The position numbers and the translations under genes are program-made. From assembly GCF_056746865.1 (NCBI RefSeq), contig NZ_CM163382.1: DNA of 64,000 nucleotides. One strand, given 5' to 3'. Positions within the stretch are counted from its first letter, which is position 1. The number at the start of each line of letters is the position of its first letter. Positions 1-57,323 of this stretch are shown here, one piece after another. The notes under the pieces are model-generated. The model did not search any database, had not been told where the DNA came from, and was given only the letters and a program-made list of their open reading frames with translations.

Positions 1-84
1 AAGGGATCATTATCTTTTATGAAAACTTTCAACCCATTTATCGTTTTATTATATATCATAATGAATTATTTTAACCTTAAATCT

Positions 85-1092
85 TTAGAAGCATTTTTCT
101 TTATAATACTTTAAATAATTAAAAATGCCTGCCATATAATGCTTTTGTTTAAATTTATGTTTTGCACAATACCGATACTGATTGCTATTCACAGGTTTAA
201 GTAAATCTTCTTTACACCACGGAGAAGCTGCTTTGGCGATCAAAAAACTACGTGACACCGGATAATCAGCCCACTCATGCCAGGGTTTTGTAGGTCCCAC
301 ATAGTGTATAAACACGGTGTCATCATTGACTGGATTATCAACTTTGTCTTTTAATTCATAGTTAATACTATATCGGGTATTATATTTCCCCGAAATAAAC
401 TTCACTTTACCATTCAATAATACATTCAGTACATCTTGATCAAGGTGGGTGATTTTACTTACCCAATCTGGGTCACGCAACATTTCAATAGCTTTTGACG
501 AAATGTTATTTAGATTCCACTCATCAATATTTATCAGCAAAAAACCAGCATTGAAATATCCAGAAGCTAATTGTGGTGTAGTTAATACCGAGGCTCGATT
601 CTGCCACCATTCAACATCTCTTTCAGCTACAACTGCGGCAATTTCATTAGTAGAGAATTGATAATCTAAGAGTTCTTTAATACTACCCTTGCAAGCAATA
701 TCTGCATCAAGGTATAGTATTTTTTCATGTTTATTATAGAAATAATCTGCAATTATAAATCGAAAATATGTAGCGTAAGTCCAGTTTTTCGTGCTTGGTA
801 ATGACTTCAGCTTATCACAATTGATAACATAAATATTAATTCTTGAATTATATTGTTTTGCTAAATCGGAAAAATATAACTTGTCTTTATCACTGATATA
901 ATCTGTGAAAACATGAAATTCACAAGAGATTTCGCTATTGTTTAATAGAATAGATGCGATGGCTACACCACATCCAAAAAGAAAATTTCTGTCAATACCA
1001 AATGCGATATCAAGAGTATTTTTAGATCTTATATTTTGATAATGAAAGTTATACTCAAAAAGGATGATGTCACTATCATTGAGTTGAGACAT
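85..1092 (-). CDS. LPS outer-core glycosyltransferase, glycosyltransferase family 8 (WaaO/WaaI-type)
   Basis: 335-aa ORF immediately downstream of waaP in the waaQ operon; size and sequence resemble GT8 outer-core transferases; AT-rich as is typical of outer-core genes. Cannot separate WaaO from WaaI by eye. Confidence 0.8.
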   Translation of the reverse strand: MSQLNDSDIILFEYNFHYQNIRSKNTLDIAFGIDRNFLFGCGVAIASILLNNSEISCEFHVFTDYISDKDKLYFSDLAKQYNSRINIYVINCDKLKSLPSTKNWTYATYFRFIIADYFYNKHEKILYLDADIACKGSIKELLDYQFSTNEIAAVVAERDVEWWQNRASVLTTPQLASGYFNAGFLLINIDEWNLNNISSKAIEMLRDPDWVSKITHLDQDVLNVLLNGKVKFISGKYNTRYSINYELKDKVDNPVNDDTVFIHYVGPTKPWHEWADYPVSRSFLIAKAASPWCKEDLLKPVNSNQYRYCAKHKFKQKHYMAGIFNYLKYYKEKCF

Positions 1093-1134
1093 ATTTATTC
1101 TGTATCCAAAATTTTGGCAAAAATAAGTTACGGG

Positions 1135-1932
1135 TTACAACGATTTTCTAATCGTTCTTTCCCTGATTTTTGTGGCTTTTGCTTCTGCTTGCGACAGCAG
1201 TCCTTGTTCCTGCTTGAGAATGTCTTTAAGCGGGGCGGCAAAATACACTTTCATAAACCGCCAGATATCCCGCTGAGTCAGGCCAATATTCATCGAAGAA
1301 AAATAAAGCCCTATAAGATCTTTATCGCGCCAACGATGTGGAACGCGCGTGCGAAGCTGCGCCCGGTGCAGGTCAATTACCGAAATTTTTAACTCCTCTT
1401 CCTTACCGGAAAAAGGCAAGTGCAGCAGGAAATGACAGATATAACAGTCACGGTGGTTAATGCCCGCAGCATGCATATCGCGCACCATCGTCGCGACACG
1501 CTTAATAAGCATACGCTTTACGCGAACATCTGGTGGGTTAGTCGCCCAGTCAGCACAGTAATCTTCCAGACTGATGGTTGGTGTCAGATCTTCAGTTATA
1601 ATAAACGAGGTTCTGGTGAGCGGATTAATGCCTTTTTCGCCGAATGCCACCCCATACATAGTATCAACGCCGACATCCCGCAGTCGATGAATCGCATTCC
1701 ATTCGCGGTCTGCGCCTAATACTGGCATCCGCAATGAGAGTAAATTTTTGATTATCTCTTTCAGGGTCGTGCCGCGATGCCATTTGAGAAAATAGCTTTT
1801 GCCCGCCATTTCAAAGCGCAGAGTGCGGCGAGTTTCCAGTTCACGAAATACCTCACCCTGCAAGGTTTTAACTTCCTCAAAAGGATCTTTACCGCGCCAT
1901 AACGTGGCAAACGGCTCTTTAAGTTCAACCAT
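1135..1932 (-). CDS. waaP: LPS core heptose(I) kinase
   Basis: ORF translation [36 protein letters not shown] matches WaaP as recalled; start taken at MVELK; 4-bp overlap with waaG end. Confidence 0.93.
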
Positions 1933-3049
1933 CCAGACCACCCGTTATGATGTCCGCCGCTTTCTCTGGCAGACTGTATAAATCTTGTGTATCAGCATAA
2001 TGTCGCGCATTTTCCGCCCAGGCCTGGCGCAATGAAGATTGCGTTAACGCTTTGCGTAAAATCTCATTCAATGTTTCCTGGCGGAATGGCTCAGCAATAG
2101 CCTCGCCGCAATTGGCGTCGACAATATAATGCGCATAGCCACAAACGGCTGTTGTTAGTACCGGTAATCCTGCAGTTATCGCTTCCAGCAGTACAATTCC
2201 CGCGGCTTCCTGGTAGGCAGGATGCAGTAATAAATCCGCCGCCGCCATTAATTCCGAGACATCGTTGCGCCCCGAGAAGAAGTGAACATTACTGCGCACG
2301 CCGCGTTTTTCTGCCAGCGCCTCAAATTTTCGCGGTTTATCCTGCCCAACAACATATAGCAATGTGTTGTGGCGCAGCGAATCCGGTAACGAAGCAAGTG
2401 CTTCAATGGAACGATCGACACCTTTACGCGTGAAGTCTGAACCAACCTGCAACAATAAATATTGTTGTTCGGTTATTCCATTCTTCTTACGGAAGATTTC
2501 ACGGCTATTGGCTGGCTGCTGGCTATATTTACGATCAGGATAAATCCCCGGTGGCAGAATATGAAAACGCTCCACTTCAGTCTGATAATGTTTCTGGAAA
2601 TCGGCGATTTGCTTATCTGTCAGCATCAGCAGCTGTGTCGGCTTGCCCTGTTCGAAGGTTGCCCGCTCAAAGGCGGCATAATGGCGATAACGTGACGTCA
2701 GGCGATAGAAAAAGCCTTTTTCCTGCGCTACTTTCTCGGCATAACAAACATCAGCGGCATAATAAACGTCCAGCCCCGGCATTTTGTTGAATCCAACGAC
2801 TTTATCGACGGGATGTTCGCGTAAATGTTTTTGCACCCAGGCAAAATACTCCGCATTGCGCCCGTGATTGGTATGCGATTTAACCGGCACTTTGATCAGT
2901 TCAAATACATCAGGACATTCGCCTTCCCACGACTGGGTATAAACCCGAACATGATGACCTCGGGCGGCGACTGTCTGAGCAATACGCATAAAATCGCGCT
3001 GCAAACCGCCAAAGGGAAAATATTTATATAAACAAAAAGCAACGATCAT
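1925..3049 (-). CDS. waaG: LPS core glucosyltransferase I
   Basis: 374-aa [27 protein letters not shown] matches WaaG (GT4); sits between waaQ and waaP. Confidence 0.95.
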
Positions 3050-4104
3050 AACGACGTACCTGTCGTGGAGGAGGGCAGTAATTTATCGACAGCAGCAATG
3101 ACATCTGCCGCCGGAATAACCGAAAGATACATCTCATTTCGGTCACGCTGATCGCGCGTTGGCATTTCCCGGTAATCTCCCGCCCAGAATTGAATCATGT
3201 TATTTGACCAGGGACGCCAGAAAATATGGTCTGTCGCACCAAACAGCGATATCAGCGGCGTATTAACTGCTGCGGCAATATGCGCCGGTGCGGAATCAAC
3301 GCCAATAAACAGCTGCGCATGATCGATTAACGCACCAAGTTCCGGGAAGGTCACCTTTCCGGCCAGCGCCGTTACTGGTGGCGTCTGGCATCCCTGCGCA
3401 ATTTCATTGACGCAGACCAGATCGTCTTTATCTGGGCCGGACGTCAGAACGACTTCATAACCACGAGCATGTAAGGCATCAATCACAGCGGAAAACTTGG
3501 CGTTGTCCCAGCATTTGAAGATTTGCCGCGCCGTAGGTTGGATAACCACATAATTTTGTCCAACACCAGCGTGATCAAGTTCGCGACGCATACGTTTCCA
3601 GCTTGCAGGCGGGTAACTCATGGTTGTCTGCTTCACCAACGATTCAAGCCCCAATGGCGACAGCACGGATAAGTTACTTTCCACCACATTTCCACCCTGC
3701 AACGGCACCAAATGAGTGAAACTATTACGCCAAAAAGCAGCCTGCCGATGATGATAATCCTGGGAAATTTTCACACGGGCATTTAATAAGCGCACCAGTA
3801 TAGCAACCATCCATTGATCGGTAAGATTAACGATAAGGTCATACTTATTGGCACGTAATACCTTGATGAGATGAAAAAAGTTGGCAATTTTTTCTGCGGC
3901 TTTTGCTTTTTTATTTTTTATGCCGTAGAGCGCGTTAATCTCTGGATTTTCAGACAGGATCGGGATGGTGTCCTGATAAAGCAGCACATCGATTTTTGCG
4001 TCAGGGTAATTTTTTTTCAGCGAACTAATGACGGGAGTAGTTAATAACATATCCCCATGAAAACGCATCTTAATGAGCAAAATTCTTCGAAATGGCTTAT
4101 CCAC
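3046..4104 (-). CDS. waaQ: LPS core heptosyltransferase III
   Basis: 352-aa ORF with heptosyltransferase (GT9) features, first gene of the waaQ operon; the true start may be an internal Met (MRFHGDM). Confidence 0.9.
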   Translation of the reverse strand: MDKPFRRILLIKMRFHGDMLLTTPVISSLKKNYPDAKIDVLLYQDTIPILSENPEINALYGIKNKKAKAAEKIANFFHLIKVLRANKYDLIVNLTDQWMVAILVRLLNARVKISQDYHHRQAAFWRNSFTHLVPLQGGNVVESNLSVLSPLGLESLVKQTTMSYPPASWKRMRRELDHAGVGQNYVVIQPTARQIFKCWDNAKFSAVIDALHARGYEVVLTSGPDKDDLVCVNEIAQGCQTPPVTALAGKVTFPELGALIDHAQLFIGVDSAPAHIAAAVNTPLISLFGATDHIFWRPWSNNMIQFWAGDYREMPTRDQRDRNEMYLSVIPAADVIAAVDKLLPSSTTGTSL

Positions 4105-4153: not shown

Positions 4154-4165
4154 CACGCTACCGCC
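4154..4165 (-). promoter_or_regulatory. ops element (GGCGGTAGCGTG) in the waaQ leader, RfaH recruitment site within JUMPstart
   Basis: Plus strand reads cacgctaccgcc; the reverse complement is the canonical ops 12-mer, placed upstream of waaQ on its coding strand. Confidence 0.75.
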
Positions 4166-4516
4166 CCAGGCTCAACAGCTACCTGAATACTGATACCGCA
4201 CTGATATTGACGCGCTAGTGTATCACTTCTTTCGCGGCAATCCGACCCGAATGATTTTTAAGCACATTGTTGATTTTCAATAAAGAAATCAATCAAATAA
4301 AATCATTAGCAACCATATTCTTTCACTGTTGCTCTGCGATTCCTTCCTGCACGTACTGCAGAAATCAATGAATCGCATAAAAATACAAAAAAAGTATAGA
4401 TGTTCAGCAAGAATTGGCGGGTAAATTGCTATTTAAGTCAAAAACGGGAAAAGTAATGGTAAAGCCACAGCTAAATACATAGAATCCCCAGCACATCCAT
4501 AAGTCAGCTATTTACT

Positions 4517-8707: not shown

Positions 8708-9928
8708 ATGAGCCTGGCCGGTAAAAAAATCGTTCTCGGCGTCAGCGGCGGTATTGCTGCCTATAAAACCCCTGAACTGGTGCGTCGTTTGCGCGATCGC
8801 GGGGCCGACGTCCGCGTAGCCATGACCGAAGCGGCAAAAGCCTTTATCACCCCACTTAGCTTGCAGGCGGTTTCTGGTTATCCCGTTTCCGACAGTCTGC
8901 TGGACCCGGCAGCCGAAGCCGCTATGGGCCATATTGAGCTGGGTAAATGGGCTGATTTAGTGATTCTCGCCCCTGCCACGGCAGATTTGATTGCCCGTGT
9001 TGCTGCCGGAATGGCGAATGATCTGGTATCGACGATTTGTCTGGCCACACCTGCGCCTGTAGCCGTGCTCCCCGCCATGAACCAGCAGATGTACCGTGCC
9101 GCTGCCACGCAGCATAATTTAGAGGTGCTTGCTTCCCGTGGTTTGCTCATCTGGGGGCCAGACAGTGGCAGTCAGGCTTGTGGTGATATCGGCCCTGGGC
9201 GAATGCTCGATCCGTTAACCATTGTTGATATGGCGGTAGCGTATTTTTCGCCCGTCAACGACCTGAAACATCTGAACATTATGATTACCGCCGGCCCGAC
9301 GCGTGAACCGCTCGATCCGGTGCGTTATATCTCTAATCACAGCTCAGGCAAGATGGGTTTTGCTATCGCCGCCGCCGCTGCCCGTCGTGGCGCGAACGTC
9401 ACGCTGGTATCAGGTCCGGTTTCACTACCGACGCCACCGTTTGTTAAACGTGTTGATGTGATGACTGCGCTGGAAATGGAAGCGGCCGTGAATGCTTCTG
9501 TACAGCAGCAAAATATTTTTATCGGTTGCGCCGCCGTGGCGGATTATCGCGCAGCTACCGTGGCCCCAGAGAAAATCAAAAAGCAGGCCACGCAGGGTGA
9601 TGAATTAACAATAAAAATGGTTAAAAACCCCGATATCGTCGCAGGCGTTGCCGCACTAAAAGACCATCGACCCTACGTCGTTGGATTTGCCGCCGAAACA
9701 AATAATGTGGAAGAATACGCCCGGCAAAAACGTATCCGTAAAAACCTTGATCTGATCTGCGCGAACGATGTTTCCCAGCCAACTCAAGGATTTAACAGCG
9801 ACAACAACGCATTACACCTTTTCTGGCAGGACGGAGATAAAGTCTTACCGCTTGAGCGCAAAGAGCTCCTTGGCCAATTATTACTCGACGAGATCGTGAC
9901 CCGTTATGATGAAAAAAATCGACGTTAA
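8708..9928 (+). CDS. coaBC: bifunctional phosphopantothenoylcysteine decarboxylase / synthetase
   Basis: Start at [20 protein letters not shown] (flavoprotein fold); 406 aa; the six-frame ORF has a 24-codon upstream extension. Confidence 0.95.
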
Positions 9929-10364
9929 GATTCTGGACCCGCGCGTTGGGAAGGAATTTCCGCTCCCGACTTATGCCACCTCTGGCTCTGCCGGACTTGA
10001 CCTGCGTGCCTGTCTCGACGACGCCGTAGAACTGGCTCCGGGTGACACTACGCTGGTTCCGACCGGGCTGGCGATTCATATTGCCGATCCTTCACTGGCG
10101 GCAATGATGCTGCCGCGCTCCGGATTGGGACATAAGCACGGTATCGTGCTTGGTAACCTGGTAGGATTGATCGATTCTGACTATCAGGGCCAGTTGATGA
10201 TTTCCGTGTGGAACCGTGGTCAGGACAGCTTCACCATTCAACCTGGCGAACGCATCGCCCAGATGATTTTTGTTCCGGTAGTACAGGCTGAATTTAATCT
10301 GGTGGAAGATTTCGACGCCACCGACCGCGGTGAAGGCGGCTTTGGTCACTCTGGTCGTCAGTAA
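9906..10364 (+). CDS. dut: dUTP diphosphatase
   Basis: [36 protein letters not shown]; overlaps the coaBC 3' end. Confidence 0.95.
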
Positions 10365-10470
10365 CACATACGCATCCGAATAACGTCATAACATAGCCGC
10401 AAACATTTCGTTTGCGGTCATAGCGTGGGTGCCGCCTGGCAAGTGCTTATTTTCAGGGGTATTTTGTAAC

Positions 10471-11067
10471 ATGGCAGAAAAACAAACTGCGAAAAGGAAC
10501 CGTCGCGAGGAAATACTTCAGTCTCTGGCGCTGATGCTGGAATCCAGCGATGGAAGCCAACGTATCACGACGGCAAAACTGGCCGCCTCTGTCGGCGTTT
10601 CCGAAGCGGCACTGTATCGCCACTTCCCCAGTAAGACCCGCATGTTCGATAGCCTGATTGAGTTTATCGAAGATAGCCTGATTACTCGCATCAATCTGAT
10701 TCTGAAAGATGAGAAGGACACCACAGCGCGCCTGCGTCTGATTGTGTTGCTGCTTCTCGGTTTTGGTGAGCGTAATCCTGGCCTGACCCGCATCCTCACT
10801 GGTCATGCACTAATGTTTGAACAGGATCGCCTGCAAGGGCGCATCAACCAGCTGTTCGAGCGTATTGAAGCGCAGTTGCGTCAGGTATTGCGCGAAAAGA
10901 GAATGCGTGAGGGTGAAGGTTACACCACCGATGAAACCCTGCTGGCAAGCCAGATCCTGGCCTTCTGTGAAGGTATGCTGTCACGCTTTGTCCGCAGCGA
11001 GTTTAAATACCGCCCGACGGATGATTTTGACGCCCGCTGGCCGCTAATTGCCGCACAGTTGCAGTAA
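10471..11067 (+). CDS. slmA: nucleoid occlusion factor SlmA (TetR family)
   Basis: Start at [24 protein letters not shown]; 198 aa; HTH near the N-terminus. Confidence 0.93.
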
Positions 11068-11773: not shown

Positions 11774-11807
11774 AGACAAAATAAATATCCTCCGGCATAG
11801 CCGGAGG
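11774..11807 (-). terminator. pyrE attenuator hairpin with U-rich tract, ~30 nt upstream of the pyrE start
   Basis: Plus-strand cctccggcatagccggagg (11789-11807); on the pyrE-sense transcript it is followed by AUAUUUAUUUUG. Confidence 0.6.
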
Positions 11808-11809
11808 TT

Positions 11810-12520
11810 TTTCAAATGCGCCTATAAGGCTCTCTTACCAGCCGCGCCCTAACAGGCGCACACGATCTGACATTTGCATCCAACTTCGTTACTTACGGCC
11901 CGTAAACGGGCTGCCCGGATAGGGAATCGATAACTGCTCTCCCATTTTATCCTCTTCAAGCTGGTGCTTTATGTAATCCTGTATCTTCGCCGTGTTCTTA
12001 CCCACTGTATCGACGTAGTACCCTCTGCACCAGAACTCCCTGTTCCTGTATTTGAATTTCAAATCACCAAACTGCTCGTAAAGCATCAGACTGCTTTTCC
12101 CTTTCAGATATCCCATAAACCCGGATACGCTCATTTTAGGCGGGATCTCCACAAGCATATGGATATGATCTGCACAGCATTCAGCTTCCAGAATCCGTAC
12201 GCTTTTCCACTCACACAGCTTTCTCAAAATACTGCCTATTGCTCTACGCTTCTCTCTGTAGAACACCTGTCTTCGGTATTTTGGCGCAAAAACTATGTGA
12301 TATTTACAGTTCCATCGGGTGTGCGCTAAGCTCTTTTCGTTCCCCATTGGGACCCCCTTTTGATTTCTTGTTTGACACTTGCAGTTGCCAGACCGCAAGG
12401 TGTTTTAACAAATCAAAAGGGGTTTTAATAACTGGCTCAAAGCTGAAAGCTTTCCGGAACCCCCAGCCTAGCTGGGGGTTTTCTGTGCACAAAAAAAGGC
12501 GACTCATCAGTCGCCTTAAA
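11810..12520 (-). mobile_element. IS200-family insertion sequence (about 0.71 kb, ends approximate)
   Basis: Contains an IS200-type tnpA plus two hairpins at the rph-proximal end (aaggcgactgatgagtcgcc+T7, and aacccccagcctagctgggggtt). The rph-pyrE gap is 777 bp against about 68 bp recalled for K-12. Confidence 0.7.
11889..12347 (-). CDS. tnpA: IS200/IS605-family transposase TnpA (HUH Y1 type)
   Basis: MGNEKSLAHTRWNCKYHIVFAPKYRR...HIHMLVEIPPKMSVS matches IS200 TnpA; 152 aa from the internal Met. Confidence 0.9.
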   Translation of the reverse strand: MGNEKSLAHTRWNCKYHIVFAPKYRRQVFYREKRRAIGSILRKLCEWKSVRILEAECCADHIHMLVEIPPKMSVSGFMGYLKGKSSLMLYEQFGDLKFKYRNREFWCRGYYVDTVGKNTAKIQDYIKHQLEEDKMGEQLSIPYPGSPFTGRK

Positions 12521-13365: not shown

Positions 13366-14229
13366 ATGATCCGCAGTATGACCGCCTACGCCCGGCGTGA
13401 AATCAAGGGTGAATGGGGGAGCGCAACCTGGGAAATGCGCTCGGTAAACCAGCGTTATCTGGAAACTTACTTTCGTCTGCCGGAGCAGTTCCGTAGCCTT
13501 GAACCTGTCGTTCGCGAGCGTATTCGTTCTCGCCTGACGCGCGGTAAAGTGGAATGTACCCTGCGCTATGAACCAGATGTTAGCGCACAAGGTGAGCTGA
13601 TCCTCAACGAAAAACTGGCTAAACAGCTGGTAACTGCCGCGAACTGGGTAAAAATGCAGAGTGACGAAGGGGAAATCAACCCGGTTGATATTCTCCGCTG
13701 GCCGGGGGTAATGGCAGCCCAGGAGCAGGATCTCGACGCGATTACCGCTGAAATTCTCGCGGCGCTGGATGGTACGCTGGACGACTTTATCGTCGCACGC
13801 GAAACCGAAGGTCAGGCGCTGAAAGCATTGATCGAGCAGCGTCTGGAAGGCGTCACCGCCGAAGTGGTCAAAGTCCGCGCCCATATGCCGGAAATCCTGC
13901 AATGGCAGCGTGAGCGTCTGGTCGCGAAGCTGGAAGATGCTCAGGTGCAACTGGAAAACAACCGTCTGGAGCAGGAGTTGGTTCTGCTGGCACAACGAAT
14001 TGACGTTGCCGAAGAACTGGATCGCCTCGAAGCGCATGTCAAAGAGACCTACAACATTCTGAAGAAAAAAGAAGCGGTTGGTCGTCGTCTGGACTTTATG
14101 ATGCAGGAGTTCAACCGCGAGTCGAACACTCTTGCGTCGAAATCTATCAATGCCGAAGTGACGAATTCTGCCATCGAGCTGAAAGTGTTGATTGAGCAGA
14201 TGCGCGAGCAGATCCAGAATATCGAATAA
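13366..14229 (+). CDS. yicC: YicC-family stress-induced protein
   Basis: 287-aa ORF MIRSMTAYARREIKGEWGSATWEMRSVNQRYLE. Confidence 0.95.
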   Translation: MIRSMTAYARREIKGEWGSATWEMRSVNQRYLETYFRLPEQFRSLEPVVRERIRSRLTRGKVECTLRYEPDVSAQGELILNEKLAKQLVTAANWVKMQSDEGEINPVDILRWPGVMAAQEQDLDAITAEILAALDGTLDDFIVARETEGQALKALIEQRLEGVTAEVVKVRAHMPEILQWQRERLVAKLEDAQVQLENNRLEQELVLLAQRIDVAEELDRLEAHVKETYNILKKKEAVGRRLDFMMQEFNRESNTLASKSINAEVTNSAIELKVLIEQMREQIQNIE

Positions 14230-14294: not shown

Positions 14295-14336
14295 TATCAT
14301 GAGCTATCATAACGACGCAACAAAGCGCACAATATG

Positions 14337-14360
14337 CGTGTACATAGAGGTGTACATAAT
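14337..14360. repeat. left boundary direct repeat of the island (putative attL): cgtgtacatagaggtgtacataat
   Basis: 22 of 24 identical to 35327-35350; flanked by further TGTACA palindromes at 14365-14390. Confidence 0.6.
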
Positions 14361-14417
14361 GACTTTCATGTACATTGCTTTATGTACACACCCATATTCG
14401 ATATTCAGGTATTCGCA

Positions 14418-15677
14418 ATGCCAAAACTCACAGATATGCAGATCCGCGCATGGATAAAGGCGGGAGACAGATTTGATGGCAAGGCAGACGGCAACGGCCT
14501 TTATATTTGCTACCCCAAAAACTACACAGTCCCGTTCTGGCGATTCCGCTATAAGCTCGCAGGAAAGCAGCGGGCTATGGTTATAGGCTCTTACTCCGAA
14601 CTGTCACTATCAAAAGCCAGAGAAACAGCAAAAGAGCTGTCAGCCAGAGTTGCTCTTGGCTATGACGTAGCAGCAGAGAAACAGGAACGAAAAGCTGAAG
14701 CACTGGCAAAAATGGAGGCTGAGAAAAACGCCATGCGTGTTTCAGATCTGGCCTCCGAATACTTCGAGCGCCAGATACTTCCGAGATGGAAACATCCCGA
14801 TATCCTTCGCCGGAGAATTGATAAGGATATTAACCCCTGCATTGGGCATATGAAGGTGGAGGACGTTAAGCCACGCCACATTGACGACATGTTGAAAGGT
14901 ATCGTTGACCGAGGAGCACCAACGATAGCAACAGATGTATTACGCTGGACACGCCGTATCTTTGACTATGGGATAAAACGCCATGCTCTGGAGATAAACC
15001 CTTGTTCAGCGTTTGAAGTATCTGATGCTGGTGGTAAAGAGGTTTCCCGCGACCGTTGGCTAACTCGCGATGAGCTTATCAGGCTATTCGAGGCTATGCG
15101 CACCGCAAAAGGATTCAGCCGCCAAAACGAACTGACATTTAAGCTATTGCTGGCACTATGCGTTCGTAAGATGGAGTTATGCGCCGCACGATGGGAAGAG
15201 TTTGATTTAGATAGTGCTGTATGGCATTTGCCGGAAGAACGCAGCAAAAACGGGGACCCTATTGATATACCTCTACCTTCTCCAGCCGTTGAATGGTTGA
15301 GAGAGCTACACACCTTTTCATGTAATAGCGCATGGGTGCTTCCAGCCAGGAAGATGCAAAACAGAATGATCCCACATATTCAGGAAAGCACTTTACCCGT
15401 AGCACTGGCTAAGGTTCGCGCCGAAATGCCGGATGTGCCTAATTTCACGATTCACGACTTCCGACGCACCGCACGTACTCATTTAGCAGCGTTGGGTGTT
15501 GATCCTGTTGTGGCGGAACGATGCCTCAATCATCGCATTAAGGGCGTAGAGGGGATTTATAACCGCCATCAGTATTTTAATGAGCGTAAAGCAGCACTGG
15601 CACAGTGGGCTGATCTGCTGGTGGCACTGGAAAGCGGAAAAGACTACAACGTAACGCCTCTCAGAAGGGCGAACTAA
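14418..15677 (+). CDS. int: tyrosine recombinase, P4/CP4-57 integrase family
   Basis: MPKLTDMQIRAWIKAGDRFDGKADGNGLYICYPKN... with C-terminal HDFRRTARTHL...NHR...IYNRHQY catalytic region; 419 aa. Confidence 0.9.
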   Translation: MPKLTDMQIRAWIKAGDRFDGKADGNGLYICYPKNYTVPFWRFRYKLAGKQRAMVIGSYSELSLSKARETAKELSARVALGYDVAAEKQERKAEALAKMEAEKNAMRVSDLASEYFERQILPRWKHPDILRRRIDKDINPCIGHMKVEDVKPRHIDDMLKGIVDRGAPTIATDVLRWTRRIFDYGIKRHALEINPCSAFEVSDAGGKEVSRDRWLTRDELIRLFEAMRTAKGFSRQNELTFKLLLALCVRKMELCAARWEEFDLDSAVWHLPEERSKNGDPIDIPLPSPAVEWLRELHTFSCNSAWVLPARKMQNRMIPHIQESTLPVALAKVRAEMPDVPNFTIHDFRRTARTHLAALGVDPVVAERCLNHRIKGVEGIYNRHQYFNERKAALAQWADLLVALESGKDYNVTPLRRAN

Positions 15678-15902: not shown

Positions 15903-16268
15903 ATGATTGATGTCTTAGGACCGGAGAAACGCAGACGGCGTACTACACAGGAAAAGATCGCTATTGTTCAGCAGAGTTTTGAACCGGGAATGACGGTCTC
16001 CCTTGTTGCCCGGCAACACGGTGTGGCAGCCAGCCAGTTATTTCTCTGGCGCAAGCAATACCAGGAGGGAAGTCTTACTGCTGTGGCCGCAGGAGAGCAG
16101 GTCGTTCCTGCCTCTGAACTTGCTGCTGCCATGAAGCAGATTAAAGAACTCCAGCGCCTGCTCGGCAAAAAAACGATGGAAAATGAACTCCTTAAAGAAG
16201 CCGTTGAATACGGGCGTGCAAAAAAGTGGATAGCGCACGCGCCCTTATTGCCCGGGGATGGGGAGTAA
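15903..16268 (+). CDS. insC: IS2 transposase OrfA (InsC)
   Basis: [53 protein letters not shown] matches IS2 InsC. Confidence 0.9.
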
Positions 16269-17131
16269 GCTTAGTCAGCCGTTGTCTCCGGGTGTCGCGT
16301 GCGCAGTTGCACGTCATTCTCAGACGAACCGATGACTGGAAAGATGGTCGCCGCAGCCGTCACTCAGATGATACGGATGTGCTTCTCCGTATACACCATG
16401 TTATCGGAGAGCTGCCCACGTATGGTTATCGTCGGGTATGGGCGCTGCTTCGCAGACAGGCCGAACTTGATGGTATGCCTGCGATCAATGCCAAACGTGT
16501 TTACCGGATCATGCGCCAGAATGCGCTGTTGCTTGAGCGAAAAACCGCTGTACCGCCATCGAAACGGGCACATACTGGCAAAGTGGCCGTGAAAGAAAGC
16601 AATCAACGATGGTGCTCTGACGGGTTCGAGTTCCGCTGTGATAACGGAGAAAAACTGCGAGTCACGTTCGCGCTGGACTGCTGTGACCGTGAGGCACTGC
16701 ACTGGGCAGTCACTACGGGCGGCTTCGACAGTGAAACAGTACAGGACGTAATGCTGGGAGCGGTGGAACGCCGCTTCGGCAACGAGCTTCCGGCGTCTCC
16801 AGTAGAGTGGCTGACGGATAATGGTTCATGCTACCGGGCTAATGAAACACGGCAGTTTGCCCGGATGTTGGGGCTTGAACCGAAGAACACGGCGGTGCGG
16901 AGTCCGGAGAGTAACGGCATAGCAGAGAGCTTCGTGAAAACGATAAAGCGTGACTACATCAGTATCATGCCTAAACCAGACGGGTTAACGGCAGCAAAGA
17001 ACCTTGCAGAGGCGTTCGAGCATTATAACGAATGGCATCCGCATAGTGCACTGGGTTATCGCTCGCCACGGGAATATCTACGGCAGCGGGCCAGTAATGG
17101 GTTAAGTGATAACAGGTGTCTGGAAATATAG
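16226..17131 (+). CDS. insD: IS2 transposase OrfB (InsD), DDE integrase domain
   Basis: 301-aa ORF overlapping insC in another frame, as in IS3-family frameshifted transposases. Confidence 0.9.
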
Positions 17132-22481: not shown

Positions 22482-22845
22482 AAATGCAGAAATGGCGCTT
22501 AGCTCCGCAATCGGAGAGCAGGTGGCAAAGATTGCTGGTGCTGTGTGGATTCATAACCTTCATTCTACTGGTGAAGAGAAAATGGCAATTCAGACGCCAG
22601 AGGGACGCACCATTACTACATCTCTGAAGCCGTCAGATGTTTGTGATCTGATTTGCGCATTCATGTACCCAGCAATGAGGACTGTCCACGGCGATAAGTG
22701 GAAACTTGCGACAACCGCTGAATTTGATATGTGGCTAAACAATGATGGCATGCTGACTGATTACGGAATAACCAAGTGGCAGATGCTGGTTAGCCATATC
22801 GCAAACGCTATAGACCACGTGGGGTACGGTGATGCGAAACATTGA
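22474..22845 (+). CDS. hypothetical protein (123 aa)
   Basis: Overlaps neighbours at both ends. Confidence 0.55.
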   Translation: MRENAEMALSSAIGEQVAKIAGAVWIHNLHSTGEEKMAIQTPEGRTITTSLKPSDVCDLICAFMYPAMRTVHGDKWKLATTAEFDMWLNNDGMLTDYGITKWQMLVSHIANAIDHVGYGDAKH

Positions 22846-35596: not shown

Positions 35597-35641
35597 TTGT
35601 AGACTTACTTTCCTTGCAATCGATATCACATGGAGTGGGCA

Positions 35642-36466
35642 ATGAACGAACATCATCAACCTTTTGAAGAGATAAAGCTGATTAATGCAAACGGAGCAGA
35701 ACAATGGTCAGCAAGACAACTTGGAAAACTACTGGGTTATTCAGAGTATCGTCACTTTATACCTGTATTAACGCGCGCCAAAGAAGCTTGTCTGAATAGT
35801 GGTCACACAATTGATGACCATTTCGAGGAGATCCTCGATATGGTCAAAATTGGCTCAAATGCCAAAAGAGCATTAAAAGACATCGTACTCTCCCGCTATG
35901 CCTGTTACCTGGTAGTACAAAACGGCGACCCTGCGAAACCGGTTATTGCGGCAGGGCAAACTTATTTTGCTATCCAGACCCGACGGCAGGAGCTGGCTGA
36001 CGATGAAGCTTTCAGGCAACTTCGTGAAGACGAAAAGCGTCTTTTTCTGAGAAATGAGTTGAAAGAACATAACAAACAATTAGTTGAGGCAGCGCAGCAA
36101 GCTGGGGTAGCGACAGCTATCGATTTCGCCATATTTCAGAATCATGGTTACCGGGGACTGTATGGTGGATTAGATCAGAAAGCTATCCATCAGCGGAAGG
36201 GGCTGAAAAAGAGTCAGAAGATCCTGGATCATATGGGTTCAACAGAACTGGCGGCTAATCTCTTTCGAGCTACCCAAACAGAAGAAAAACTCAAGCGGGA
36301 TGGCGTGAATTCAAAACAGCAAGCTAACACCACACACTTTGACGTGGGTAGCAAGGTGAGGCAAACCATTCAGGAACTTGGCGGAACCATGCCTGAGGAG
36401 TTGCCGACCTCGCAGGTCAGCATCAAGCAGTTGGAAAACAGTGTAAAAATTACAGAGAAGAAATAG
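35642..36466 (+). CDS. dinD: DNA damage-inducible protein D
   Basis: MNEHHQPFEEIKLINANGAEQWSARQLGKLLGYSEYRHF matches DinD; 274 aa. Confidence 0.93.
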   Translation: MNEHHQPFEEIKLINANGAEQWSARQLGKLLGYSEYRHFIPVLTRAKEACLNSGHTIDDHFEEILDMVKIGSNAKRALKDIVLSRYACYLVVQNGDPAKPVIAAGQTYFAIQTRRQELADDEAFRQLREDEKRLFLRNELKEHNKQLVEAAQQAGVATAIDFAIFQNHGYRGLYGGLDQKAIHQRKGLKKSQKILDHMGSTELAANLFRATQTEEKLKRDGVNSKQQANTTHFDVGSKVRQTIQELGGTMPEELPTSQVSIKQLENSVKITEKK

Positions 36467-49913: not shown

Positions 49914-51144
49914 AAATCAATCTCGCCGGGTACGACTCAGACGTACCCGGCATTCCGTCAATAGATTACAACGTAATTGTCAGCGCATTCCCTTGAGGCG
50001 TCACCACCAGCCCCTGCTCACTTTCAGCCTGCGAACCGCCTTGCAGACCATTTACTTTCACAACATTGCGCAAGCACAGTGTCCAGTTCTTCGCCTCGCC
50101 CGCACCAGTCACAGTAATCGTGTTACCAGTACGTGTTGCTTTTAGAGTAAAGATCACCGAACCGTCAGCAGCGGGCACTTCACAAAGAGCTTCATGCCCG
50201 TCTTGCAGATTAAAGAGATGGAATGCCGTGCCTTCGTGCCACGCGTAATCGGGACGTTGCTCGTTGTTGCCCAGCGCCAGTAGGGTGTTATCACGCACAT
50301 AAACGGGCAGACTCAGGAAGCTGTGCTGCTGTTTATGCCAGCGACTACCATCGAGTTCATCGTTGTGCCACAGATGTGTCCAGCGACCTTCCGGCAAGTA
50401 GAACTGCACATCGCCCGCTTCAGTGAACACCGGAGCAACCATCACGTTGTCGCCTAACATGTATTGACGGTCAAGGTAATCACAAGCCGGATCGTCCGGG
50501 AACTCCATCATCATGGCCCGCATCATCGGCGTACCCCGCGCGTTCGCACGAGCAGCTTCACGATACAGATACGGCATCATGCGGCATTTCAGTTGCGTGA
50601 AGAAGCGCACCACATCACAGGACTCATCATCATAGGCCCACGGCACACGATAAGATTTGCTGCCATGTAAACGGCTATGGCTGGAGAGCAAACCAAACGC
50701 GCACCAGCGTTTGTAAACGTGCGCCGGAGCGGTATTCTCAAAGCCGCCGATATCGTGGCTCCAGAAGCCAAAACCTGAAAGGCCAATAGACAAACCACCG
50801 CGCAGGCTTTCCGCCATTGATTCGTAGTTAGCGTAACAGTCGCCACCCCAGTGTACCGGGAATTTCTGCGCACCAACGGAGGCCGAGCGAGCAAACAAGA
50901 CGGCTTCTTCCTGGCCAACGGTTTCCTTGAGCACGTTCCACACCAGTTCGTTGTAGATGTACGCATAATGGTTATGCATTTTCTGCGGATCGGAACCGTC
51001 AAACCATTGAACATCGGTTGGAATACGTTCGCCAAAGTCAGTCTTAAAGCAATCAACGCCCATCGCGACCAGACCTTTCAGTTTGTCGGCGTACCATTTG
51101 CAGGCATCCGGATTGGTAAAGTCATAAATCGCCAGACCTGGCTG

Positions 51145-52570
51145 TAATGCCGATCAGTTAAGGATCAGTTGACCGATCCAGTGGCTGTGTAAGAATCCGG
51201 AAACGCTCACTTGTTTCCGGATTTTTTTATGCACATTGGACAGGCTCTTGATCTGGTATCCCGTTACGATTCTCTGCGTAACCCACTGACTTCTCTGGGG
51301 GATTACCTCGACCCCGAACTCATCTCTCGTTGCCTTGCCGAATCAGGTACTGTAACGCTACGCAAGCGCCGTCTTCCCCTCGAAATGATGGTCTGGTGTA
51401 TTGTTGGCATGGCGCTTGAGCGTAAAGAACCTCTTCACCAGATTGTGAATCGCCTGGACATCATGCTGCCGGGCAATCGCCCCTTCGTTGCCCCCAGTGC
51501 CGTTATTCAGGCCCGCCAGCGCCTGGGAAGTGAGGCTGTCCGCCGCGTGTTCACGAAAACAGCGCAGCTCTGGCATAACGCCACGCCGCATCCGCACTGG
51601 TGCGGCCTGACCCTGCTGGCCATCGATGGTGTGTTCTGGCGCACACCGGATACACCAGAGAACGATGCAGCCTTCCCCCGCCAGACACATGCCGGGAACC
51701 CGGCGCTCTACCCGCAGGTCAAAATGGTCTGCCAGATGGAACTGACCAGCCATCTGCTGACGGCTGCAGCCTTCGGCACGATGAAGAACAGCGAAAATGA
51801 GCTTGCTGAGCAACTTATAGAACAAACCGGCGATAACACTCTGACGTTAATGGATAAAGGTTATTACTCACTGGGACTGTTAAATGCCTGGAGCCTGGCG
51901 GGAGAACACCGCCACTGGATGATACCTCTCAGAAAGGGAGCGCAATATGAAGAGATCAGAAAACTGGGTAAAGGCGATCATCTGGTGAAGCTGAAAACCA
52001 GCCCGCAGGCACGAAAAAAGTGGCCGGGACTGGGAAATGAAGTGACTGCCCGCCTGCTGACCGTGACGCGCAAAGGAAAAGTCTGCCATCTGCTGACGTC
52101 GATGACGGACGCCATGCGCTTCCCCGGAGGAGAAATGGGGGATCTGTACAGTCATCGCTGGGAAATCGAACTGGGATACAGGGAGATAAAACAGACGATG
52201 CAACGGAGCAGGCTGACGCTGAGAAGTAAAAAGCCGGAGCTTGTGGAGCAAGAGCTGTGGGGTGTCTTACTGGCTTATAATCTGGTGAGATATCAGATGA
52301 TTAAAATGGCGGAACATCTGAAAGGTTACTGGCCGAATCAACTGAGTTTCTCAGAATCATGCGGAATGGTGATGAGAATGCTGATGACATTGCAGGGCGC
52401 TTCACCGGGACGTATACCGGAGCTGATGCGCGATCTTGCAAGTATGGGACAACTTGTGAAATTACCGACAAGAAGGGAAAGGGCCTTCCCGAGAGTGGTA
52501 AAGGAGAGGCCCTGGAAATACCCCACAGCCCCGAAAAAGAGCCAGTCAGTTGCTTAACTGACTGGCATTA
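51145..52570 (+). mobile_element. IS4, 1426 bp, 18-bp terminal inverted repeats, 12-bp target-site duplication CAGACCTGGCTG
   Basis: Ends taatgccgatcagttaag and cttaactgactggcatta (16/18 match as inverted repeats); TSD at 51133-51144 and 52571-52582. Confidence 0.9.
51229..52557 (+). CDS. insG: IS4 transposase
   Basis: [34 protein letters not shown] matches IS4 InsG; 442 aa. Confidence 0.9.
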
Positions 52571-53731
52571 CAGACCTGGCTGCCATTTATCCCACTGCCA
52601 CAGCGAACCGTCCGGGCGTTTGAGTAAATAGCCTTTCTCTTGTAACTCTTTAAAGACAGGGGATTTTTGCCCGATATAGGGGTTAATCCAGACGCAGATT
52701 TTCAGCCCTTTCGCTTTCAGGCGGCGGATCATCCCTTCCGGGTCCGGGAAAGTCAGCGGGTCCCACTCAAAATCGCACCACTGGAAGGCTTTCATCCAGA
52801 AACAGTCAAAGTGGAAAACATGCAGTGGCAGATTGCGTTCCGCCATACCATCGATAAAGCTGTTTACCGTCGCTTCGTCGTAGTTGGTGGTAAATGAAGT
52901 GGTTAGCCACAGACCGAAGGACCACGCGGGCGGCAGCGCCGGACGACCAGTAAAACGGGTATAACGATCAAGTACCGCTTTCGGCGTCGGGCCGTCGATA
53001 ACAAAGTATTCGAGATATTCACTCTCAACGCTGAACTGCACTTTGGAGACTTTCTCCGCTCCCACTTCAAAAGAGACGCATTGAGGATGATTGACCAGTA
53101 CCCCATAACCACGGTTAGTCATATAGAACGGGATATTTTTATACGCCTGTTCAGTACTTGTGCCGCCGTCCCGGTTCCAGGTCTCTACCGTCTGGCCATT
53201 GCGCACCAGGGCAGTAAAGCGCTCACCCAGACCGTAAACTGTTTCGCCAACGCCAAGATCCAGCCGCTCAAACATATAATTTCGTTGATTATTCGTGTCC
53301 TGCACGTAGCCATTATTTTTCACCTGACTACCGGTAATACGTTCGCCGTTGCGCAGAAAATCCAGTGACCAGAACTCACCTTTGCTGACACGCGCGCTTA
53401 AGTTGCCACTTTTAAACTCAGCGTAACGTTCTGTGTTTTCGATTGTGACCTTCACGTCCTGCAAAATATTGAGCGGATAATGAGGACCGTTATTCAGCGC
53501 CCCCTGAAAATGCTCAATCCGTACACCGACAATACCTTCCTGTGGGGAGAAAAAGCGCAGCGTAAATAAAGGCGTATCAAGCTGCCAGGTTCGTTCACGC
53601 ACATCACGGGGGGCAGCATAGACCACCATTTCATTACCCTGCTGTTCAACCTCGAACACCTGAAGCGGGTGAATCAAATTGAGGCCAGGTTGAATCAACC
53701 AGTTTCCATCGCTAATTTTCATTGCCGTTCC

Positions 53732-55406: not shown

Positions 55407-55501
55407 GGAAGATCGTCGTCTCCGGTGAGGCGGCTGGACTTCAAATCCAGTTGGGGCCGCCAGCGGTCCCGGGCAGGTTCGACTCCTGTGATCTTCCGCC
55501 A
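55407..55501 (+). tRNA. selC: tRNA-Sec (selenocysteine, UCA anticodon)
   Basis: ggaagatcgtcgtctccggtgaggcggctggacttcaaatccagttggggccgccagcggtcccgggcaggttcgactcctgtgatcttccgcca matches selC; 95 nt with long variable arm and 3' CCA. Confidence 0.95.
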
Positions 55502-56138: not shown

Positions 56139-57323
56139 ATGCAAAAAACGGCTACCACTCCATCAAAAATACTTGATCTCACTGCCGCGGCATTTTTACT
56201 TGTCGCCTTTCTGACGGGTATTGCGGGCGCTCTCCAGACTCCTACCCTAAGTATATTCCTCGCAGATGAACTGAAAGCCCGTCCTATAATGGTAGGTTTT
56301 TTCTTCACCGGTAGCGCTATTATGGGAATTCTTGTCAGTCAATTTCTGGCAAGACACTCCGATAAACAAGGCGACCGTAAATTACTGATCCTGCTATGTT
56401 GCTTATTTGGAGTGCTGGCCTGCACGCTTTTTGCGTGGAATCGCAACTACTTCATTCTCCTCTCTACGGGCGTACTTCTGAGTAGTTTTGCTTCCACCGC
56501 AAACCCGCAAATGTTCGCCCTCGCCCGTGAACACGCCGACAGAACAGGCCGTGAGACGGTAATGTTCAGTACATTTTTACGTGCTCAGATCTCGCTTGCC
56601 TGGGTTATCGGGCCACCGCTCGCTTATGAGCTGGCAATGGGATTTAGTTTTAAAGTGATGTATCTCACCGCAGCCATCGCATTTGTTGTTTGCGGGCTGA
56701 TAGTCTGGTTGTTTTTGCCATCAATACAAAGAAATATTCCTGTCGTTACCCAACCCGTAGAAATTTTACCCTCCACCCATAGGAAGCGGGATACACGGCT
56801 ACTTTTCGTGGTTTGTTCAATGATGTGGGCGGCGAATAATCTCTACATGATAAATATGCCGCTATTTATTATTGATGAACTGCATCTAACCGATAAACTG
56901 GCTGGAGAAATGATTGGTATTGCTGCCGGTCTGGAAATTCCGATGATGTTAATCGCAGGCTATTACATGAAACGTATTGGCAAGCGGCTATTAATGCTCA
57001 TTGCTATCGTGAGTGGAATGTGTTTTTACGCCAGCGTACTCATGGCGACGACTCCGGCAGTTGAGCTGGAATTGCAAATTCTAAATGCCATCTTCCTTGG
57101 TATTCTCTGTGGTATCGGCATGCTTTATTTTCAGGACCTGATGCCTGAAAAAATAGGCTCTGCGACAACGTTATATGCAAATACTTCACGCGTCGGCTGG
57201 ATTATCGCCGGCTCTGTTGACGGAATTATGGTTGAAATCTGGAGCTACCACGCGTTGTTCTGGCTGGCGATAGGGATGTTGGGTATTGCGATGATTTGCC
57301 TGCTGTTTATTAAAGATATTTAG
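56139..57323 (+). CDS. setC: sugar efflux transporter (MFS)
   Basis: 394-aa ORF MQKTATTPSKILDLTAAAFLLVAFLTGIAGALQTPTLSIFLADEL. Confidence 0.93.
   Translation: MQKTATTPSKILDLTAAAFLLVAFLTGIAGALQTPTLSIFLADELKARPIMVGFFFTGSAIMGILVSQFLARHSDKQGDRKLLILLCCLFGVLACTLFAWNRNYFILLSTGVLLSSFASTANPQMFALAREHADRTGRETVMFSTFLRAQISLAWVIGPPLAYELAMGFSFKVMYLTAAIAFVVCGLIVWLFLPSIQRNIPVVTQPVEILPSTHRKRDTRLLFVVCSMMWAANNLYMINMPLFIIDELHLTDKLAGEMIGIAAGLEIPMMLIAGYYMKRIGKRLLMLIAIVSGMCFYASVLMATTPAVELELQILNAIFLGILCGIGMLYFQDLMPEKIGSATTLYANTSRVGWIIAGSVDGIMVEIWSYHALFWLAIGMLGIAMICLLFIKDI

Follow-up and report, generated by a model that had tools for sequence, protein, structure and literature searches.

The gene at 85..1092 on the minus strand of the 64,000-nucleotide stretch of DNA that we analysed (the window) is very probably waaI of the Escherichia coli R3 core type, which stands fourth in the waaQ operon, itself dependent on RfaH and ops. 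The outer core of a strain with this allele would almost certainly be of the R3 rather than the K-12 type; the chemotype is predicted from linkage in other genomes, because the rest of waaY, together with waaJ, waaD and waaL, lies beyond the window. Both the gene and its place are those of a textbook R3 waaI, and the biology is already known. The source strain is typed by it as an R3-core E. coli, an ordinary chemotype found in roughly one in four sequenced E. coli, O157:H7 among them, and the typing provides background for phage adsorption, the site of O-antigen ligation, and serum and amoeba interactions rather than new biology.

The waaI gene and the waaQ operon

The first-pass annotation had placed a family 8 glycosyltransferase (GT8) gene directly after waaP. 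This was borne out: the ORF of 335 codons is intact, is separated from waaP by a spacer of 42 bp, and encodes a product that matched both Pfam PF01501 and NCBIfam NF011718. The PF01501 (Glyco_transf_8) match spanned residues 29-275 (E 8.5e-74) and took in positions 2-253 of the 253-position profile, with a score of 248.8 bits against a cut-off of 24.3, establishing membership of GT8. A second domain, PF08437 (GT8 C-terminal; E 1.1e-20), is also present, and the score for the NF011718 equivalog was 616 bits (cut-off 461). These family matches and the operon context exclude a chance ORF.

On the same strand the gene order is waaQ-waaG-waaP-waaI (Table 1). For waaP we used the start at 1932, which is the PGAP start in the identical sequence of 118UI, an R3 genome. 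The JUMPstart leader element upstream of waaQ contains an exact match to the ops octamer GGCGGTAG, at 4158-4165 on the minus strand. The window holds six copies of GGCGGTAG against 1.25 expected from shuffles, the others being at 9232, 11500, 17807, 23514 and 36962. Only the copy at 4158-4165 sits in a JUMPstart element, and two of the others (17807 on the plus strand and 23514 on the minus strand) are inside the island described below. These five further copies may be due to chance.

The last gene reached by the window on this side is waaY, of which 19 codons are present. Their translation, MIYNKTINGLKVFIKDNDP, was identical to the start of WaaY from 118UI at 19/19 positions and to that of O157:H7 WaaY at 18/19, and was clearly unlike the N-termini of K-12 WaaY and R1 WaaY and unlike R1 WaaT. 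Among the listed matches spanning the full query of window positions 1-1200, all were annotated as rfaY at the waaY position.

Table 1. Coordinates of the features found in the window
Feature	Coordinates	Strand	Remarks
waaY 5' end (R3 allele), cut by window edge	1..59	-	19 codons; translation MIYNKTINGLKVFIKDNDP
waaI-waaY intergenic spacer	60..84	-	25 bp; within the 80/80 F653 arm match (window 26-105)
waaI (very probably; R3-type HexII glycosyltransferase)	85..1092	-	335 aa; ATG start; intact, without internal stop; from the ORF list
waaP (LPS core heptose I kinase)	1135..1932 with PGAP start (ORF 1135..1941)	-	NF011703, E 7e-145
waaG (GT4 glucosyltransferase I)	1925..3049	-	ORF; Glycos_transf_1, E 2.4e-40; named waaG in 118UI and O157
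waaQ (heptosyltransferase III), first gene of the operon	3046..4104	-	NF007742, E 1e-213
JUMPstart leader element, upstream of waaQ	4154..4192	-	Rfam RF01707, 55.2 bits (gathering score 35)
waaA	4517..5794		divergent to the waaQ operon
IS200-type element	11800-12520		between pyrE and rph
169-aa ORF	11889-12398	-	in the IS200-type element
STnc490 RNA	12357-12480	-	Rfam, 146 bits; in the IS200-type element
yicC	13366-14229		
Island, about 21 kb	14334-~35500		between yicC and dinD
P4-type integrase	14334-15677		island
IS3-family transposase	16226-17131		island
P4 alpha-like primase	22829-25183		island; Zn-ribbon/Toprim/DUF5906
Inj_translocase, P22-like DNA-ejection gene	28230-29549		island
SLT-domain 908-aa protein, P22-like DNA-ejection gene	29540-32266		island
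dinD	35630-36466		
yicI, C-terminal half	49966-51063	-	alpha-xylosidase
IS4-family transposase gene	51211-52557		between the yicI halves
yicI, N-terminal half	52568-53722	-	alpha-xylosidase
tRNA-Sec (selC)	55407-55501		
SetB/SetC-type sugar efflux transporter gene	56139-57323		follows selC

Allele identity and gene order across core types

The protein was compared by BLASTP with the GT8 and neighbouring proteins of annotated K-12, R1, R2, R3 and R4 loci. It was 100% identical to the R3 protein of 118UI (WP_000080652.1) and 98.8% identical to the R3 WaaI of O157:H7, which has the same length of 335 residues and differs from the window protein at four positions (S53R, N120H, G235E and C293S). 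Identity to WaaO was 58% for R2, 57% for K-12, 55% for R4 and 54% for R1. It was 37-40% for the HexIII GT8 enzymes WaaT, WaaR, WaaW and WaaJ, and 34% for R2 WabA. K-12 WaaS gave no BLASTP match, and K-12 WaaB aligned solely over an 8-residue stretch that was not significant (E 9.4). In a neighbour-joining tree, the window protein and O157 WaaI formed a separate branch inside the HexII (WaaO/WaaI) clade, while the HexIII enzymes and WabA stood apart from that clade. The HexIII transferases WaaJ, WaaR, WaaT and WaaW were ruled out by their 37-40% identity and separate clade; K-12 WaaS, K-12 WaaB and R2 WabA were ruled out by the BLASTP results.

The flanks of the gene were matched to published deletion constructs. 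The lambda-Red waaI knockout arms of F653, the R3 prototype, are given in PMC9927288 as 80 nt each; the R3-waaI-down arm matched the window at 80/80 positions (26-105) and the other arm at 79/80 (1090-1169). The waaI deletion arms for O157:H7 ATCC 43895, as printed in PMC11394844, matched at 42/42 (85-126) and 43/43 (1050-1092).

The first-pass annotation had taken a GT8 gene directly after waaP as the arrangement of R1 or R3, and had given the K-12 order as waaP-waaS-waaB. This K-12 order was right: MG1655 has waaP-waaS-waaB-waaO, within an annotated order of waaQ-G-P-S-B-O-J(R)-Y-Z-U. A GT8 gene after waaP was also correct for R1 and R3, R1 having waaP-waaO-waaT and R3 waaP-waaI-waaY, but the restriction to these two types did not hold, R2 and R4 also having a GT8 gene in that place. 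In full, the R1 loci (ATCC 25922, AR434 and 300081) read waaQ-G-P-O-[GT8 = waaT]-Y-[waaW]-[GT2 = waaV]-waaL, and the R4 locus (23CRST011) has the R1 order except that a GT25 gene (waaX) replaces the GT2 gene. The R2 locus (CRE1493) reads waaQ-G-P-[GT8, 326 aa = wabA]-B-O-J-Y-Z-[GlcNAc transferase waaK]. Its gene in the 'waaS' position (10061-11041 of the R2 locus) encodes a GT8 protein (PF01501, E 9.4e-50), and the GT8 gene following waaP in R2 is named wabA in PMC13293308. No Pfam domain was matched in K-12 WaaS. The R3 loci (118UI and O157:H7 Gim1-1) read waaQ-G-P-['waaO' = waaI]-Y-[waaJ]-[waaD], and in them waaL closes the hldD-waaF-waaC operon. The window order waaP-waaI-waaY is that of R3, as against waaP-waaO-waaT in R1 and R4.

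A GT8 gene directly after waaP thus rules out K-12 only, the arrangement being shared by R2 (wabA) and R4. Since gene order by itself excludes only K-12, the R3 call rests on sequence identity: near-identity to R3 WaaI, with the R3 waaY downstream, settles the choice of 'R1 or R3' in favour of R3. The alignments to R1 WaaO and R3 WaaI that the first-pass annotation had proposed gave 54% and 98.8%, respectively, and so point to R3. Its placing of the strain outside the K-12 core chemotype agrees with 98.8% identity to R3 WaaI against 57% to K-12 WaaO, and the best match that would have spoken against it, to K-12 WaaS or WaaB, was not seen, neither giving a significant BLASTP match.

Two other identities for the gene were weighed against these data. 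A WaaO of the R1 or R4 core, that is, a UDP-glucose:(glucosyl)LPS alpha-1,3-glucosyltransferase, would occupy the same place after waaP, belong to the same family and length class (338 aa) and carry the same PGAP product name. However, it would be expected neither at 98.8% identity to R3 WaaI and 54% (R1) or 55% (R4) to its own type, nor in front of waaY with an R3 N-terminus, the next gene in those types being the GT8 gene waaT; moreover, non-R3 genomes lie at 60-80% DNA identity to the window gene with none intermediate. This WaaO reading is ruled out by identity (54-55%) and by the downstream gene, and we consider it extremely improbable. The other identity is a K-12/R2-type locus, in which the gene would be waaS/wabA, waaB, or a K-12 WaaO displaced by a waaS-waaB deletion. 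R2 does have a GT8 gene, the 326-aa wabA, directly after waaP, and K-12/R2 hybrid waa loci are reported, which lends this some support. Against it, identity is 34% to R2 WabA and 57-58% to K-12 and R2 WaaO, neither K-12 WaaS nor K-12 WaaB matches significantly, K-12 WaaS has no Pfam domain, and the downstream gene is R3 waaY, not waaB or waaR. A K-12/R2-type origin therefore has a vanishingly small probability.

Linkage of the R3 block and other features of the window

The waaI gene was searched by blastn against 5426 complete E. coli genomes. Its nucleotide identity was bimodal (n = 5426), with 1363 genomes above 90%, 4060 at 60-80% and none between. The R3 waaI allele was therefore present in 25.1% of complete E. 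coli genomes, in agreement with the R3 frequency of 25.8% among 4,505 typed genomes given in PMC13293308, which assigns the R3 chemotype to nearly all EHEC and much of phylogroups B1 and E. The query 1-1200, which includes the waaI-waaY junction, was covered to at least 80% in 1363/5426 genomes, and for the entire waaD-waaJ-waaY-waaI block of 118UI a coverage of 80% or above was also reached in 1363 genomes. The equal counts, compared as totals from two sets that were not intersected, indicate complete linkage of the R3 block. These counts and the 100%-identical 118UI locus stood in for the distal operon outside the window.

Linkage bears directly on a further reading, that the gene is a true R3 waaI but that differing or disrupted distal genes give a hybrid, truncated or non-canonical outer core. 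Only the first 59 bp of waaY are in the window, E. coli is known to have waa loci that are hybrid or disrupted by IS elements, and several IS elements occur within the same 64 kb, all of which would leave room for such a core. On the other side, the junction count of 1363 equals the count for the block (at least 80% of waaD-waaJ-waaY-waaI), and the hybrids described in the published accounts retrieved are R2/K-12, plus R1/R4 in ECOR46, with none involving R3. We regard a non-canonical core of this kind as quite unlikely. It is very unlikely that R3 waaI is joined here to a non-R3 or disrupted distal block, an R3 hybrid of a type yet undescribed, or that one of the four substitutions alters donor or acceptor preference; if either were true, the core would have a new structure and the surface offered to phages as receptor would be altered.

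The waaP stop codon marks the sharp edge of the core-type-specific cassette. In non-R3 genomes, megablast alignment to the window starts at 1135, which is the waaP stop codon, and reading leftward GC content drops at the same place (window ~1093-1135), from 0.47-0.49 to 0.31-0.36 in waaI. Among the complete genomes compared, none was colinear with the first 25 kb of the window, the best coverage being 89%, because of its island and IS content.

Several mobile elements were seen elsewhere in the window (Table 1). The genes pyrE and rph are separated by an IS200-type element, which holds a 169-aa ORF and a match to the Rfam STnc490 RNA. Judged from the sequence and this Rfam match, the ORF is a putative IS200-type transposase. 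118UI lacks the element, and its genes are offset from those of the window by ~712 bp. An IS4-family transposase gene stands between the two separate halves of the alpha-xylosidase gene yicI. After the tRNA-Sec gene selC comes a gene for a SetB/SetC-type sugar efflux transporter and not an integrase gene, and no island was obvious immediately at selC in the window.

An island of about 21 kb, encoding a P4-type integrase, a P4 alpha-like primase and P22-like DNA-ejection genes, lies between yicC and dinD. It also encodes an Ash-family protein and an AntA-like protein (a weak PADLOC PDC-S22 match), and no tRNA gene was found at its integration site. This is probably the island meant by the first-pass annotation, which had tied the core type to phage receptor specificity and to exclusion functions proposed for an island in the same genome. 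A link of core type to receptor specificity and island-encoded exclusion is plausible on general grounds; where an O antigen is present, it would hide the core. Outer-core type of the LPS belongs to the surface traits for which a significant association with lysis by some phages is reported (Gaborieau et al. preprint; PMC13293308 introduction).

Donor sugar and comparison with known systems

The donor of the R3 enzyme (Gal or Glc) is not readable from sequence. Of the solved structures, the closest by sequence was LgtC (1G9R/1GA8; E 4.7e-18, aligned over residues 27-273), a retaining alpha-galactosyltransferase and the structural archetype of bacterial GT8. D129-A-D131 of the window protein aligns with the DXD motif D103-I-D105 of LgtC, D218-Q219-D220 with D188-Q189-D190, and H263 with H244. 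We take these LgtC positions to be metal and UDP-sugar binding residues, with H244 as the C-terminal metal ligand.

WaaI is a GT8 enzyme of the retaining, GT-A-fold kind and would work on the cytoplasmic side of the inner membrane, as a UDP-galactose:(glucosyl)LPS alpha-1,3-galactosyltransferase. With Mn2+ as cofactor, it would take Gal from UDP-Gal and attach it through an alpha-1,3 bond to the GlcI residue of the growing lipid A-core, the acceptor that WaaG adds. The product would be the HexII residue, to be extended next by WaaJ and other R3 enzymes. Transcription would start at the waaQ promoter, and antitermination through RfaH and ops would let RNA polymerase reach the AT-rich distal genes of an operon predicted to read waaQ-waaG-waaP-waaI-waaY-waaJ-waaD. 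We infer the donor sugar, the linkage, the metal dependence and the RfaH-antiterminated expression from the LgtC structure and from published LPS phenotypes of mutants.

Deletion of waaI is described as truncating the core stepwise in F653 (PMC9927288), O157:H7 (PMC11394844) and S. flexneri 2a. The galactose at HexII is attributed to WaaI (Kaniuk et al. 2004 J Biol Chem 279:31237, through citing papers), and the methods of PMC11394844 call it a glucosyltransferase. Product names were tried as a test of Gal versus Glc and were uninformative. All five core types, non-reference K-12 assemblies included, carry one and the same PGAP name, 'waaO: lipopolysaccharide 3-alpha-galactosyltransferase', and the K-12 reference annotation of WaaO is alpha-1,3-glucosyltransferase; the NF011718 equivalog evidently spans Gal and Glc enzymes, and the names of homologues are equally uniform. 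Because the PGAP name does not vary across the five core types, annotation is unusable for core typing, which needs allele identity or the distal genes; neither product names nor 'GT8 after waaP' is sufficient.

Among known systems, Neisseria meningitidis LgtC shares with the window WaaI the GT-A fold region and the DXD, DQD and His positions. However, its overall identity is low, the Gal that it adds to lipooligosaccharide is alpha-1,4-linked, and it has no PF08437 domain, which the window WaaI has. Salmonella enterica WaaI (RfaI) is of the same family and presumed role, and the Salmonella sequences recovered were 55-63% identical to the window WaaI. In the neighbour-joining tree, the homologue from S. 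enterica subsp. enterica grouped with K-12 WaaO, away from R3 WaaI. This suggests either that donor specificity does not follow the family phylogeny or that the recovered Salmonella sequence is not an LT2-type WaaI, and the tree was accordingly set aside as support for galactosyl specificity. The nearest relatives outside Escherichia are homologues from Cedecea, Citrobacter and Atlantibacter (71-73% identity), of the same family and presumably the same role.

WaaO of K-12, R1, R2 and R4 shares with WaaI the GT8 plus GT8-C architecture, the HexII clade, the GlcI acceptor and the alpha-1,3 linkage, and in R1 and R4 it also lies directly after waaP, as waaI does in the window. It differs in identity (54-58%), in its donor, which is Glc rather than Gal according to the literature and the K-12 reference annotation, and in its neighbours, with waaT downstream in R1 and R4 and waaB upstream in K-12 and R2. 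The R3 WaaI of O157:H7, F653 and S. flexneri 2a is like the window protein in identity (98.8-100%), length (335 aa) and position, with waaP upstream and waaY downstream. The flanks of F653 waaI match the window through the knockout arms, and O157:H7 WaaI differs from the window protein by four conservative or surface-type substitutions and in nothing else.
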